Assembly: GCA_947628395.1 (NCBI GenBank)
Contig: CANQZP010000001.1
Span: 119 to 64,118, forward strand
DNA length: 64,000 nucleotides
Source of the DNA: an uncultured Clostridia bacterium
GTDB lineage: Bacteria; Bacillota; Clostridia; TANB77; CAG-508
Direction of reading: 5' to 3'
In this document: positions 1,006-61,496 of the stretch, piece by piece
Layout: each line of letters opens with the position of its first letter
Position numbering within the stretch: the first letter of the stretch is position 1
Program-made: the position numbers and the translations under genes
The notes under the pieces: model-generated
Databases searched by the model: none
Told to the model about the DNA's origin: nothing
What the model saw: only the letters and a program-made list of their open reading frames with translations

Positions 1006-1113
1006 TCCGGGCGATTAAAATCGCCCTTACGGTTTGCATTTGGTTCTGTTTTGGTTTTTGATTGGCGGACGTTGTAGGGGCGGGGCTTGTCTCCGCCCGT
1101 TTGCCCGCCCTAC
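1006..1113. repeat. Composite GC-rich palindromic intergenic repeat, inverted orientation: B hairpin gggcgattaaaatcgccc + tacggtttgcattt + A hairpin gtaggggcggggcttgtctccgccc
   Basis: Shares both hairpin cores and the linker aaatgcaaaccgta (here reverse-complemented) with the copies at 27118-27225 and 27507-27620. A partial B hairpin is also at 1-20. Confidence 0.8.
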
Positions 1114-1150
1114 ATATCGCACTGCACATTCTCCATACATTCCAAAATCG

Positions 1151-1192
1151 AACCCCAAAAAAGAACATGAGGTAAAAAACCTCATGTTCTTA
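1151..1192 (-). terminator. Rho-independent terminator after the 1707-aa surface protein gene
   Basis: On the minus strand: perfect 12-bp stem aagaacatgagg / cctcatgttctt with a 6-nt loop, followed by a T-run. It lies directly 3' of the stop at 1206. Confidence 0.7.
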
Positions 1193-1205
1193 AAATATAT
1201 TAAAT

Positions 1206-4200
1206 TTAATGTCTATCTACGATGAATTTCTTGATTACGAAAATTCCACCTGCAAGAACAATTCCTGCAATCATTATTACAAATGTATAATTATCCTTTT
1301 GTACCTCTTGAGGAGCAATACCAGTAGGATCAGTAAATGTTAATACATCAGTAGCACCTGCATCTCTTTCACCATTTAGATGTTTTACTTCTCCATTAAC
1401 AGATATCTCTTTAGCACCATCATAATCTTCTACTATTCTGCCTTCATCATAACCAGTAGCAGCTATATAAGCACCTCTAGAAGGTTCAGCATTACCAGGA
1501 ACACTATTCATATCCCTTCTACCTACAGTATTAGAATAACTTAATATCTCAGCAATATTATCGAAATTCAAATTATTAGAATCAGTTTCACCAGAAGTAG
1601 TCTTAGAAGTACTTATTCTAATTTCTCCACTAGTTGTACCTAAACCTTCAGCACTCTCAGGTACTAAGCTTGATAATAATGAAGCATTATAATTAATATC
1701 CTCAGAAACTACTATATTAGCTTTACCAGTTCCTTCAAAAGATACACCCTTATCATCAACAATCATACCATCAGTATTATATACAGAATCAGATAATAAC
1801 TCATTATTCTTTAACTCTTCTACAGTAATTGACTTCCAAGCATGATTTTCAGTATTTAAATTCTCTGTCTCATCCATAGCAATATCATTATCAATATAAT
1901 CAATAACTTGTTCTACATTAGTTGTTACTATCTTATCAGAAGAAGCAATTTTATTTGTATAGTAATTATTACCTACATAAGTACCATAAGTAATCTTACC
2001 AGATTTATATTCATCTGTTTCTTCTAATTCTAAAACCTTCGCTAAAATGTCATCAGATTTTGTATAATTTGCAAGTTCACCTGTCCAATCAACTTCAGAA
2101 GTATTTGTAACTTTAATCTTATAACCAACCTTAATTGATAAATTATTCAAATATGATTTTTCAATATTTACATATTTAACACCTTGAACATTGTTGCTTT
2201 CTGGTATATTTAATAATCTATCAGCTTGAGAAGATTTATCTACATCAATACTTCCATCATCATTAAATACAACTTTTAAGATCTCTTCTGAACCATCTAA
2301 TTTATATAAAGTAATTTCAGAAATCATTTTCTTAAGTTCTAATGCTGTCTCAGATCTCTTCTCTAAACCAAAGTCTATATCTTTTACTGTATAAGTATAA
2401 CTTGCTTTTCCATCAACTAATTTCATTTGACCATTTTCAATAAAGTCTTCTGGCTCAATCTCTAAATTCATCTTAGCAGTATTAGCAACCATCTGAGTAT
2501 TAGCAATTAAATCATTATGATTATTACCATTATCAGCACTCTCTAAAACTGTACCAACTTTATTTCCAATTGTTCTAGAGTAAGCTACAACTTTCATTCT
2601 TTGAAGCTCATAATCTCTAGCATCAGAAACTCTAGATTTATTTACATCAGCAGTAGATTTAATATCTTGCCATTCTTGATTTAAATCAGTCATACCTGCT
2701 TGATAAGCAGTATTCTTATAATCTTGACCATTGTATTTAACAACATCTTCTTTGTTACCATATTTAAATCTTACTACATAGTTTCCTGCAAGTACACCCT
2801 TAAAGTTATATACACCGTCATTTCCAGTAACTACATCTAATTTATAATTTGACATATCACTATCAGTTAAACTAAAGTATTTCTTAATATCCTCTTCTGT
2901 CCAAATCTTCTCATATTCAATTCCATCAATATTAATCTTTTCAACTAATTGAACATCTATATTTGGTATTGTAGTCTCACCATTATCAAAGATTCCATTA
3001 CCAACCTTTTGTCCATAATCAATAGTCTCAGTTTCATTATCTTCCCAAACAACACCATTTATTTCTCTCTCAAAATCATTTAAAACTATTCTTGCTGCTG
3101 GTGCTGATTCTGTTTCATCTTCATACCAAGCCTTGTCAGTAACTTTATTTAAATCAATATTATCAGGAGCTGAATCTCTATCTATTCTACCTGCAACTGT
3201 ACCATCAGTATTGTAACTTGAATAACTTGCAATTTCAGCTACATTATTCTTTTCACCTAATAATTCAGATTCCCTAGTACCATTTTTAATACCATTTTGA
3301 TTTACTTCATAAGTTACAAACAATTGTAATTGTTCACCAGATTTTAATTTTATTCCATTAAATGCAGTTATATTTCCTTGTTTATAACTACTATTTTTGC
3401 TTTGTTGTTCAGCCGTGTTCCAACTAAAGTTATCCATACCATTTGAAGTATAATCATATTTTGGAACATCTTCTCTTCCAATAACTCTATAGTAAGATGG
3501 TTCTGCTACAACTTTAGCAGTTCTATTAGTTCCATCAAATATATTAGCAGTTTGATTTTCAGTTATTAATGTAAATGTCTTATCATAGTAATCATTAATG
3601 CTATTTATAACCATATCATAAGTTCCTTCATTGAAAAGAGAAATTTTATAAGTTAAATATAATTTAAGTTCTGTATCACCTTTTATGGCCTTTACTTGAT
3701 CACTAGATGTCTCATATACTTTTGATCTATATTCATAATCAGAACTATATAATCCTACTGTATAATTAGCAGTCTTAGCGTTTTCTAATTGAATATTTAA
3801 GAATTCAGCATATTCATCTGATTCAAAATCAACTAATGAATTATATTTCTTAGTAACTTCTTTTTCATTTACAACTATATTAGCTTTATATAAATCTTTA
3901 GAAATACCTAAATCAGATTCTTGTCTGTATTTAACAGCTAAATTAATATGTAACATATAATTATAAATTGTATAATATTTAGTCTTTGTAACTTTTCCGC
4001 TCTTTTCAACTGTTTGAGTTACTTCATCAGCATCATCCTTTGTAATCTTATGATTTACTGGGAAGTAAAGTCCAGCATTTGCTGTAGAAGCATCTATTTT
4101 ATATTGATCTAAAATATGTCCATTTCCATCAATAGTTACAAGTGAAGATTTTCTCTTACTAGCAACATCATTTGAAACTGTTTCAGAAGTATAATCTAAT

Positions 4201-60555: not shown

Positions 60556-60708
60556 TAAATCCTCCTTGTATCTTACAATTTCTCTAAATAATATATATCA
60601 CAATTTAGGTACAAATTTCAATAGAATTGACAATTTTCTTTATAATTTATTTTAATTTTTTAATTTACGTGTTATAATAATTTACACATTTTATTTAAGG
60701 AGACGGTT

Positions 60709-61437
60709 ATGAAAATATTTGAACATGATTTTTTAATTAATTTTGATAATATAAAAAAAGATGGAAAACTTTCTGAAATATCACTTTTAAACTTTTTAAT
60801 TAATATTGCTGGAATGCACTCAGATACTGTAGGATATGGACTAAAAGATATTCCTAAAACAGATATAACATTTTTATTAATAGCTTGGAAAGTAAAAATC
60901 TTTGAAAGGCCATCTTGCCTAGAAAAAATACATATAAAAACTTGGGCTAATGCTTTTTATAAAGTAACGTGTACCCGTGAATTTGAAGTCTATAATCAAG
61001 AAGGAAAACTAATTGCAATAGCATCTACAAAATGGGCAATGATAAAAGTAAGTACTCATACCTTAACTAAAATTGACCATGAAATTATGGATGCTTATCA
61101 AAATATTGATAAAAAAGTTTTTCAAGGAGAAATAGAAAAATTATCTGAACCAGAAAAAATTGATAATTCTTTTTCTTATAAAATTCAAAGAAGAGACATT
61201 GATACAAATAATCATGTAAATAATTTAAAATATTTAGAAATAGGAATGGAATCTATTCCAGAAGAAATTTATGAAAATTTTTCATACACAAATTTAGAAG
61301 TAATGTATAAAAATGAATGTAAATTAGGCTATGAAATAATATGTAATTTTTCAAAAATCTCTGAAGACGAGTCTTACGTAGTAATACGAAGTAAAGATTT
61401 ATCAAAATTACATTGTATTATAAAATTCAGTAAATAA
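60709..61437 (+). CDS. Acyl-ACP thioesterase
   Basis: 242 aa. Two hot-dog halves and the conserved NNHVNN motif (DTNNHVNNLKYLE). Confidence 0.75.
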   Translation: MKIFEHDFLINFDNIKKDGKLSEISLLNFLINIAGMHSDTVGYGLKDIPKTDITFLLIAWKVKIFERPSCLEKIHIKTWANAFYKVTCTREFEVYNQEGKLIAIASTKWAMIKVSTHTLTKIDHEIMDAYQNIDKKVFQGEIEKLSEPEKIDNSFSYKIQRRDIDTNNHVNNLKYLEIGMESIPEEIYENFSYTNLEVMYKNECKLGYEIICNFSKISEDESYVVIRSKDLSKLHCIIKFSK

Positions 61438-61469
61438 AACTTTTTCCCTTTACTTTCTTAAATTATATT

Positions 61470-61496
61470 TGTAGGGGCGGGGCTTGTCTCCGCCCA
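61470..61496. repeat. A-type hairpin (gtaggggcggggcttgtctccgccc)
   Basis: Identical core to 1077-1100 and 29316-29340. Confidence 0.7.

Follow-up and report, generated by a model that had tools for sequence, protein, structure and literature searches.

Probable GTAG-tagged repetitive extragenic palindromic elements in a low-GC uncultured Clostridia genome

The window analyzed here is a stretch of 64,000 nucleotides (64 kb) from an uncultured Clostridia bacterium (contig CANQZP010000001.1 of GenBank assembly GCA_947628395.1), in which short GC-rich palindromic repeats lie scattered between the genes. The majority of its open reading frames (ORFs) are on the − strand and its GC skew is negative throughout; the gene order mreB-mreC-mreD-PBP2-minC, followed by genes for giant CLIPPER/SdrD_B surface proteins, is common to the window and to metagenome-assembled genomes (MAGs) labelled “Clostridia bacterium” that have MinC homologues. 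Fusobacterium, which the low GC and the giant ORFs had suggested as the host, is rejected, since MAGs with this label are the source of the MinC homologues. An initial annotation had listed the repeats; every coordinate in that list holds what was described, and the contrast in composition that it drew is also found, the repeat islands having 49–64% GC and the window as a whole 28.5%. With a probability of roughly 0.8, these repeats are GTAG-tagged repetitive extragenic palindromic (REP) elements, present singly and as inverted dimers similar to bacterial interspersed mosaic elements (BIMEs) and to the REP doublets known as REPINs, and including “double-foot” forms that carry a tag at both ends. 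This reading is based on the tagged hairpins themselves, their intergenic location, the duplication of whole dimers, turnover between strains and the association of the same hairpins, in other organisms, with genes for REP-associated tyrosine transposases (RAYTs).

There are 15 copies of the octamer GTAGGGGC in the window versus 0.18 expected, and none of 100 shuffles reached 15, and the 19-mer GGGCGATTATCAATCGCCC, at up to three mismatches, has five sites versus 0 expected. The published REP rule places GT[AG]G 0–2 nucleotides 5′ of a hairpin that has a short loop and a stem that is GC-rich at its base and fully paired over at least 7 bp. With a strict detector built on this rule, for which GT[AG]G must precede by 0–2 nucleotides a GC-based stem of 7 bp or more, 13 sites are detected in the window, compared with an average of 0.33 and never more than 2 in 30 block shuffles, and at 13 of the 13 the GTAG is flush against the stem. 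All of these sites are outside ORFs of 90 or more residues, one of them overlapping a stop codon; in total there are 13–15 REP copies per 64 kb, every one intergenic. Because independent contigs carry the same composites, the repeats are real sequence, and an artefact of assembly is ruled out as their origin: metagenome contig L121, from a separate assembly, is 100% identical over 888 nucleotides that span minC and the composite upstream of it, and contig L126, from a second assembly and a strain with 99% MinC identity, carries the same composites as the window. The Rfam search that had been proposed in the initial annotation gave no match at the gathering score across the whole window, and a full-text literature query with GTAGGGGCG returned unrelated primer sequences only.

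All modules open with GTAG and pass directly into a hairpin with a GGGC base, and they are of three types (Table 1). T1 is GTAG-GGGCGATT-ATC-AATCGCCC; T2 is GTAGGGGCAGGCCTTGTGTCTGCCC, of which T2b is a loop variant (CTCTAAGT-loop); and T3 is GTAGGGGCGGGGCTTGTCTCCGCCC. The two-module scheme suggested at the outset needs correction: module A consists of two hairpin types, T2 and T3, and module B is GTAG-tagged as well (cGTAG-GGGCGATT-ATC-AATCGCCC), so that one head is common to all modules. Folded as single-stranded DNA (ssDNA), T1 leaves the GTAG unpaired and forms an 8-bp stem (GGGCGATT) with a 3-nucleotide loop (−8.7 kcal/mol, z −4.6), and T3 folds at −8.1 kcal/mol (z −3.7); T2 and T3 have 8-bp stems that include one G-T pair, with loops of 5–6 nucleotides, and the composites described below have fold z-scores of −2.2 to −4.4. 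Stem pairing is retained through a compensatory change within the window, between GGGCAG/CTGCCC and GGGCGG/CCGCCC. The tag and stem of the published rule are present in T1, T2 and T3, which are canonical REPs. They also resemble the REPs of RAYT subclass 2.4 (Quentin et al. 2018, PMC6006769) in having three G-C pairs at the base of the stem, since every stem begins GGGC, and in including double-foot REPs (5′ GT[AG]G plus 3′ C[TC]AC, here GTAG...CTAC), which are found at 1074–1113, 28395–28435 and 29310–29350 with the form GTAGGGGC...CCCTAC.

Table 1. Positions of the hairpin elements and other features of the window
Feature	Position	Strand	Structure and context
T1 REP, perfect	3–25	−	GTAG then GGGCGATT-ATC-AATCGCCC; read on + strand, hairpin then T-run (3–21)
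hsp33	22–909	−	Stop codon is the TAG (22–24) of the T1 GTAG; context ...AAA CAG TAG GGGC...
T1 variant	1009–1030	−	GTAA-GGGCGAT-TTTA-ATCGCCC; left half of 1007–1113 composite
T3 REP (1074–1098) with double-foot extension	1074–1113	+	GTAGGGGC...GCCCGCCCTAC; right half of 1007–1113 composite
Four consecutive giant ORFs	1206–26857		1707, 1663, 3392 and 1651 aa; 300-nt direct repeat 19315–19614 / 19903–20202
Inverted dimer, two perfect T1 REPs	11522–11634	11522–11544 (+), 11612–11634 (−)	Tags outward, spacer 61–67 nt; hairpin + T-run 11630–11612 (−)
Composite A	27129–27216	T2 27129–27153 (−), T1 (perfect) 27194–27216 (+)	40-nt spacer; tags inward; between divergent genes
Composite A, diverged copy	27526–27615	T2 (degenerate) 27526–27550 (−), T1 variant 27592–27615 (+)	Spacer between; T1 variant is GTAA-GGGCGATG-ATGG-CATCGCCC
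T1 remnant, then composite B	28291–28435	T2b 28323–28348 (−), double-foot T3 28395–28435 (+)	T1 remnant 28291–28322; 46-nt AT-rich spacer; between convergent genes, downstream of minC
Composite B, second copy	29241–29350	T2b 29241–29266 (−), double-foot T3 29310–29350 (+)	Spacer between; intra-operon, between PBP2 stop codon and minC ribosome-binding site
PBP2, split ORFs	29355–31447		3 pieces
mreD, split ORFs	31464–31998		2 pieces
mreB, split ORFs	32845–33868		2 pieces
T1-type hairpin	38170–38191	−	GGGCGATT-AAA-ATCGCCC, T1 variant with ATGG replacing GTAG; terminator-like on + strand (hairpin + T-run 38170–38187), directly 3′ of Coat_F gene (37916–38161)
AAA_14/DUF4143 ATPase gene	38210–39433		Between Coat_F and pcrA
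T1 REP, perfect (39683–39705), then palindrome	39683–39718	+	Palindrome TTCTTCGAAGAA at 39707–39718
Decayed double-foot palindrome	45461–45492		GTAGGCACAAGGAATTTAGCCTGCACCTAC; possible old T2b-like copy, weak membership
T2 REP	47999–48023	−	T-run after on − strand (48023–47995); terminator-like, directly downstream of gene 48055–48819
Hairpin then T-run	53751–53767	+	GGTGATTATCAATCACC; putative terminator for gene 53198–53743
Solo T3 REP	61471–61495	+	T-run after (61475–61495); 3′ of thioesterase gene 60709–61437
Second palindromic family	28490–28572, 43102–43180, 48840–48925, 54895–54980		Partial copy 28448–28470
Second palindromic family, split pair	39556–39603 / 39834–39881		48-nt arms around 230 nt
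Perfect palindrome	43759–43819		30-nt arms (CCCAAAGGGGACACCTTCCAAAAGTCTCAG / reverse complement), 1-nt centre

The composites of about 110 nucleotides are inverted dimers whose tags face inward. Composite A consists of T2 or T3, a spacer ending in AAATGCAAAC, and T1, and its three copies have 74% column identity, whereas composite B consists of T2b, a 46-nucleotide AT-rich spacer and a T3 lengthened by half a T1 into GTAG...CTAC. The two copies of composite B are about 92% identical, spacer included, and their stem has a compensatory change of an A-T to a G-C pair. The direct pairs of repeats first noted as bracketing minC (28296–28440 and 29237–29350) and a tiny ORF (27117–27231 and 27507–27620) are confirmed, and so is the inverted pair at 11520–11636, which is made up of two perfect T1 REPs. 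Inverted dimers of the head-to-head or tail-to-tail kind, typical of BIMEs and REPINs, thereby occur with tags outward at 11522–11634 and with tags inward in composites A and B. As ssDNA the dimer at 11522–11634 folds at −40.3 kcal/mol (z −11.6) and is REPIN-like.

The initial annotation had also likened the repeats to RUP and BOX. The inverted ends of RUP are of the IS630 type, and its insertion produces a duplication of the target TA; in BOX the building blocks are the boxA, boxB and boxC modules. The elements of the window are, like RUP and BOX of Streptococcus pneumoniae, short, intergenic, multicopy and modular, and the unit at 11520–11636 resembles a 117-nucleotide element with perfect inverted ends of 28 nucleotides, while the length of the composites, about 110 nucleotides, would also suit miniature inverted-repeat transposable elements (MITEs) of the RUP, BOX or Correia type, with terminal inverted repeats and movement in trans by a DDE transposase. 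However, the unit at 11520–11636, where the flanks were read (...AAATC and GTAAA...), has no target-site duplication or other flanking direct repeat; hairpins also occur alone (3–25, 39683, 47999 and 61471); the ends are GTAG-tagged hairpins, found also in tandem arrays around RAYT genes, and are neither box modules nor the terminal inverted repeats of DDE-type elements; and no DDE transposase was seen beside the repeats in the loci examined. RUP and BOX have no GTAG-hairpin unit and their patterns are not present in the window. The likeness to RUP and BOX is accordingly discarded, and movement of these repeats as DDE-dependent MITEs is highly improbable.

Not every repeat that was first listed is a full member of the family. 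Those at 45461–45495 and 53750–53766 are decayed or possible relatives; that at 53750–53766 has the 11-mer GATTATCAATC in common with T1 and is a putative member. At 38168–38192 the hairpin is present, but the GTAG is replaced by ATGG. The solo T3 at 61471–61495 has the same 9-nucleotide upstream flank as that of composite B. The palindrome that directly follows T1 at 39707–39718, TTCTTCGAAGAA, is found in the same place in a low-GC Clostridia MAG (L009, position 3575), and similar sequences come after T1 in L023 and L041 and, within the window, at 11545 and 27217. Because TTCTTCGAAGAA and these near-copies trail T1 in several loci, they suggest a conserved T1 unit that reaches past the hairpin.

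Several of the repeats lie at the ends of genes, and in one case a repeat forms part of a gene: since the TAG stop codon of hsp33 is within the GTAG tag of the T1 repeat at 3–25, this repeat sets the C terminus of the protein. Hairpins followed by a T-run occur at six sites (Table 1), and in a reading of the sequence about 5–6 copies fit the pattern of an intrinsic terminator and the rest do not. As five or six copies have T-runs in terminator position, some probably now serve the host. If this were the whole explanation, the repeats would be immobile regulatory elements of the host (intrinsic terminators or stabilizers of mRNA 3′ ends) held at gene ends by selection, with their similarity a result of common function. 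The six terminator-like sites, several of them directly after stop codons, would agree with this, but a T-run is lacking in most copies, and the repeats occur in both orientations; the composite at 27117–27231 lies between divergent genes, and that at 29237–29350 is inside an operon, after the stop codon of one gene and before the ribosome-binding site of the next. In addition, whole 110-nucleotide units have been duplicated together with spacers that do not pair, copies are present or absent between strains with 96–99% MinC identity, and RAYT genes of other genomes have the identical GTAG-hairpin on their flanks. A purely host-derived regulatory origin is therefore very unlikely.

The evidence for turnover comes from strains related to that of the window, in which presence or absence was read from alignments of orthologous intergenic regions and REPs were counted with the strict detector, which finds 13 in the 64 kb of the window. 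Strain L126 (MinC 99% identical; 8.7 kb) has five strict-rule REPs, and all three of the window composites that it covers are present, these being the composite B between PBP2 and minC and both copies of composite A. The window composites are absent from L127–L129 (MinC 96%; 7 kb in L127), which have no strict-rule REPs, and from L122 (MinC 85%; 20.6 kb), which has five with different hairpins (8–9 by a looser rule); L254 (MinC 83%; 20.6 kb) has three, also with different hairpins, and L253 (MinC 68%; 20.6 kb) has none. Site by site, L127–L129 and L122 lack the PBP2-minC composite B and the two copies of composite A where these would correspond to the window, and the composite B downstream of minC has no counterpart in L127, L128 or L122. 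The hairpins of L122 and L254 are exemplified by GTAGGGGCGACCATTGGTCGTCC and GTAGGGGCACATTGCAATGTGCCC, and relatives also have REP copies at other positions. Presence and absence at orthologous sites in close relatives is the behavior of mobile elements, with the direction of change, gain or loss, a matter of interpretation, and it indicates a rapid turnover of REPs between close strains.

T1 was sought, as the pattern GTAGGGGCGATTNNNAATCGCCC, in one genome per species (596 Gb), and T3 in metagenome contigs; the counts and the taxonomic spread from both scans describe arbitrary samples of the matches. Exact T1 matches were found in at least 120 genome stretches of other species, mostly Clostridia or other Bacillota, and about one match would be expected by chance (our own arithmetic, with 20 fixed bases, 596 Gb, two strands and uniform base composition). 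Among the matches listed, the hosts include the isolates Acetobacterium paludosum and A. tundrae, a few Bacteroidaceae and single matches in other phyla, the GC content of the loci is 25–66%, and many matches are inverted pairs 50–105 nucleotides apart. At the T1 loci there are 128 further GTAGGGGC sites that do not belong to T1, of which 75 run straight into a perfectly paired hairpin of 7 bp or more, 26 different stems being represented, and none does so after shuffling; the structure of the hairpin is therefore kept while the inner stem varies. At least 120 metagenome stretches contain T3; most of them are contigs of 50–70% GC, and in this set stems swap between GGGCGGGG/CCCCGCCC and GGGCAGGG/CCCTGCCC, and T2 is also present in other loci. 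The hairpins are not private to the host organism, and the earlier description of the repeats as having their own sequence must be withdrawn. Since the hairpins are widespread elsewhere and relatives have copies at other positions, it is also unlikely that the repeats are confined to this window.

Genes for transposases with a single catalytic tyrosine (Y1) were sought in the fetched loci with a YafM sequence as query and with a profile built from homologues, and such ORFs were located exactly at the REP clusters. RAYT genes flanked by these REPs were found in three organisms: the Y1_Tnp gene of L040 lies between T1 arrays, that of L005 (6555–7070) between T1 copies and that of L153 between the members of an inverted T3 pair. 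REPs also occur in frame inside RAYT genes, in L005, where the T1 copy encodes GRLIIAPT, in L162 and in L016 (5288–6052); those of the type searched for are in two organisms, L162 and L005. The RAYT gene of L162 contains several in-frame inserts derived from REPs. The linked proteins match Pfam Y1_Tnp and NCBIfam NF047646 (REP-associated tyrosine transposase), in one instance with 115.9 bits against a cut-off of 80; their best match among solved structures is 4ER8, the TnpA_REP of E. coli, and homologues are labelled “REP element-mobilizing transposase RayT” by JGI. Across 120 RAYT homologues (P0121–P0240) the motifs NH[IV]H, WQK and YIEGNP are found, and GRxxxAPT (GR[SP]xxAPT), the reverse-strand translation of a T1-type hairpin, is at one fixed position in 117 of the 120. 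The hairpin-linked RAYTs of other organisms carry NH[IV]H, WQ and YIxGNP or YIINNP, as do those of subclass 2.4, and have the in-frame REPs of that subclass; the flanking and in-frame copies of the same hairpins are hallmarks of RAYT subclass 2.4 (PMC6006769).

Two candidates for a RAYT of this lineage itself were considered and rejected: homologues that appeared AT-rich from their amino acid composition, whose source genome has 52% GC, and the low-GC RAYT in L162, which is of Bacteroidota type. The near-universal peptide encoded by an in-frame REP suggests, speculatively, that the gene carries its own master copy of the REP, which would travel with it and re-seed the same hairpin family after transfer. 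Such a master copy would explain why an identical 23-nucleotide hairpin is found in genomes of 25–66% GC, mostly Clostridia with single matches in several phyla, and how a strain of 28.5% GC gained at least 13 GC-rich copies that are lacking in the same region of a sister with 96% MinC identity, but as an account of the spread of these hairpins it is rather doubtful.

The transposases also bear on the possibility that the repeats are miniature, palindrome-associated derivatives of IS200/IS605 elements, moved by an ordinary multicopy TnpA(IS200) as opposed to a single-copy domesticated RAYT. The chemistry would be the same, both being Y1 HUH enzymes that recognize hairpins, and the RAYT homologues give weak matches to Pfam Y1_Tnp and NCBIfam IS200. 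However, the transposases that adjoin the repeats score best against NF047646 and structure 4ER8, they have the class 2 motifs NH[IV]H, WQ and YIxGNP and not DH[VI]H and Y[IV]ENQ of class 1, and no tnpB is apparent in 1.7-kb translations around two RAYT genes from the genome scan, so that an IS200/IS605 derivation is scarcely probable.

By analogy with the biology of RAYTs and IS200/IS605 transposases, a RAYT encoded elsewhere in the genome, or formerly present, would bind the folded hairpin on ssDNA, read the GTAG tag, and cleave and rejoin the strand, and in this way REP dimers would be spread into intergenic DNA. Copies that have settled would then be transcribed within neighboring mRNAs, as would be the case for the composite inside the mreBCD-PBP2-minC operon, and several appear to have been co-opted as terminators or 3′-end hairpins. 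Certain observations weigh against the interpretation of the repeats as mobile REPs. There is no RAYT or Y1 ORF within the 64-kb window, and a resident cognate transposase is putative. The relatives provide no clean empty sites, because the flanking intergenic DNA has diverged or been deleted too, so that insertion is inseparable from recombination or loss, and these sites give no basis for defining a target. Finally, the five or six copies with T-runs could have been retained simply as terminators.

The likeness to REPs and BIMEs that was noted initially is upheld by the agreement of the repeats with the published definition of sequence and structure, by their inverted dimers and by the presence of the same hairpins beside RAYT genes elsewhere. 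In E. coli, the partners of REP/BIME in the host are IHF, gyrase and Pol I. The window repeats resemble the E. coli elements, whose RAYT is YafM/TnpA_REP (4ER8), in having GTAG beside a GC-rich imperfect palindrome, in being extragenic and in forming inverted dimers, and 4ER8 is also the nearest solved structure to the transposase linked elsewhere to these hairpins, but the window hairpins differ in sequence and loop and have shorter (8 bp), bulge-free stems. The REPINs of Pseudomonas fluorescens described by Bertels and Rainey (see also PMC5581495) are reported to be copied as a unit of two inverted REPs and a spacer, and their partner transposase is reportedly present, as a rule, in a single copy per genome. 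Copying of dimer and spacer together has a counterpart in the approximately 92% identity of the composite B copies across the spacer; the RAYT group and the sequences are different. Members of the super-family of GTAG-tagged REPs (Di Nocera et al. 2013, PMC3733652) carry GTAG at one terminus, have stems of 6–13 bp and short loops, and form head-head and tail-tail dimers 20–100 bp apart; several families coexist in a genome, and some are common to distant organisms. The window REPs match these features in tag, stem length, head-head and tail-tail dimers and number of families per genome, the likeness of T1–T3 to the 24 families being one of description, and the main text of PMC3733652 mentions neither Firmicutes nor Fusobacteria. 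RAYT subclass 2.4, which is equivalent to Bertels group 4, is found mainly in Cyanobacteria and Bacteroidetes and is “scattered” elsewhere (PMC6006769), whereas the host here is an uncultured member of the Clostridia with 28.5% GC and T1 is mostly in Clostridia among the matches listed. The present results extend the range of RAYT/REP systems, known mainly from Cyanobacteria, Bacteroidetes and Proteobacteria, to uncultured low-GC Clostridia.

For annotation, GC-rich islands of this kind are to be regarded as REP elements and not as small RNAs, coding sequence or foreign DNA, and they give rise to spurious ORFs (for example, “GRLIIAPT” and “RAIDNRPY”). REPs also break short-read assemblies: contig L121 ends within a neighboring palindrome, and the RAYT homologues mostly come from contigs about 1 kb long, which would follow from the interruption of assembly by repeats. 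Since REP content differs between strains with 96–99% identical MinC, the elements could serve as strain markers, and they may alter the expression of operons, as with the 145-nucleotide insert between PBP2 and minC and the hsp33 stop codon that is derived from a REP. Three features are of some interest: the host is a low-GC member of the Clostridia, the hairpins are identical in many taxa of differing GC content, and the in-frame REP peptide is nearly universal in the linked RAYT clade.

The window contains a second and unrelated palindromic family, TTTCAGACAGGGGGACGGAGTTATTTGTCTAAGAA-loop-TTCTTAGACAAATAACTCCGTCCCCTCTGTCTGAAA, in which the stems are about 27 bp long. Each copy is just downstream of a − strand gene, and none has a U-run. 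The split pair of this family looks MITE-like, its arms enclosing the T1 REP at 39683. Of all the loci fetched, the window alone contains the head motif of the family, TCAGACAGGGGGACGG (at up to two mismatches), and a more degenerate relative, CATACAGAGGGGACGGAG, is downstream of minC in L127 and L128. Strain-specific insertions of genes adjoin the repeats. The MITE-like unit (39556–39881) and the REP at 38170 flank the AAA_14/DUF4143 ATPase gene, which is present in the window and absent from L122. In L126, a nucleotidyltransferase/HepT toxin-antitoxin pair follows minC (1222–1857), and the window is without this pair. A further perfect palindrome (43759–43819) is situated between two − strand genes and has no T-run.

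Three essential genes for cell shape are each broken up into overlapping ORFs in the window (Table 1). As PBP2 and mreD are intact in L122, L253 and L254, and mreB in L253 and L254, the split ORFs point to frameshifts, arising from indel errors in assembly or from pseudogenes. The four consecutive giant ORFs have many internal repeats in common, among them the 300-nucleotide direct repeat, and the first corresponding giant gene in the relatives matches CLIPPER/SdrD_B surface-protein domains.

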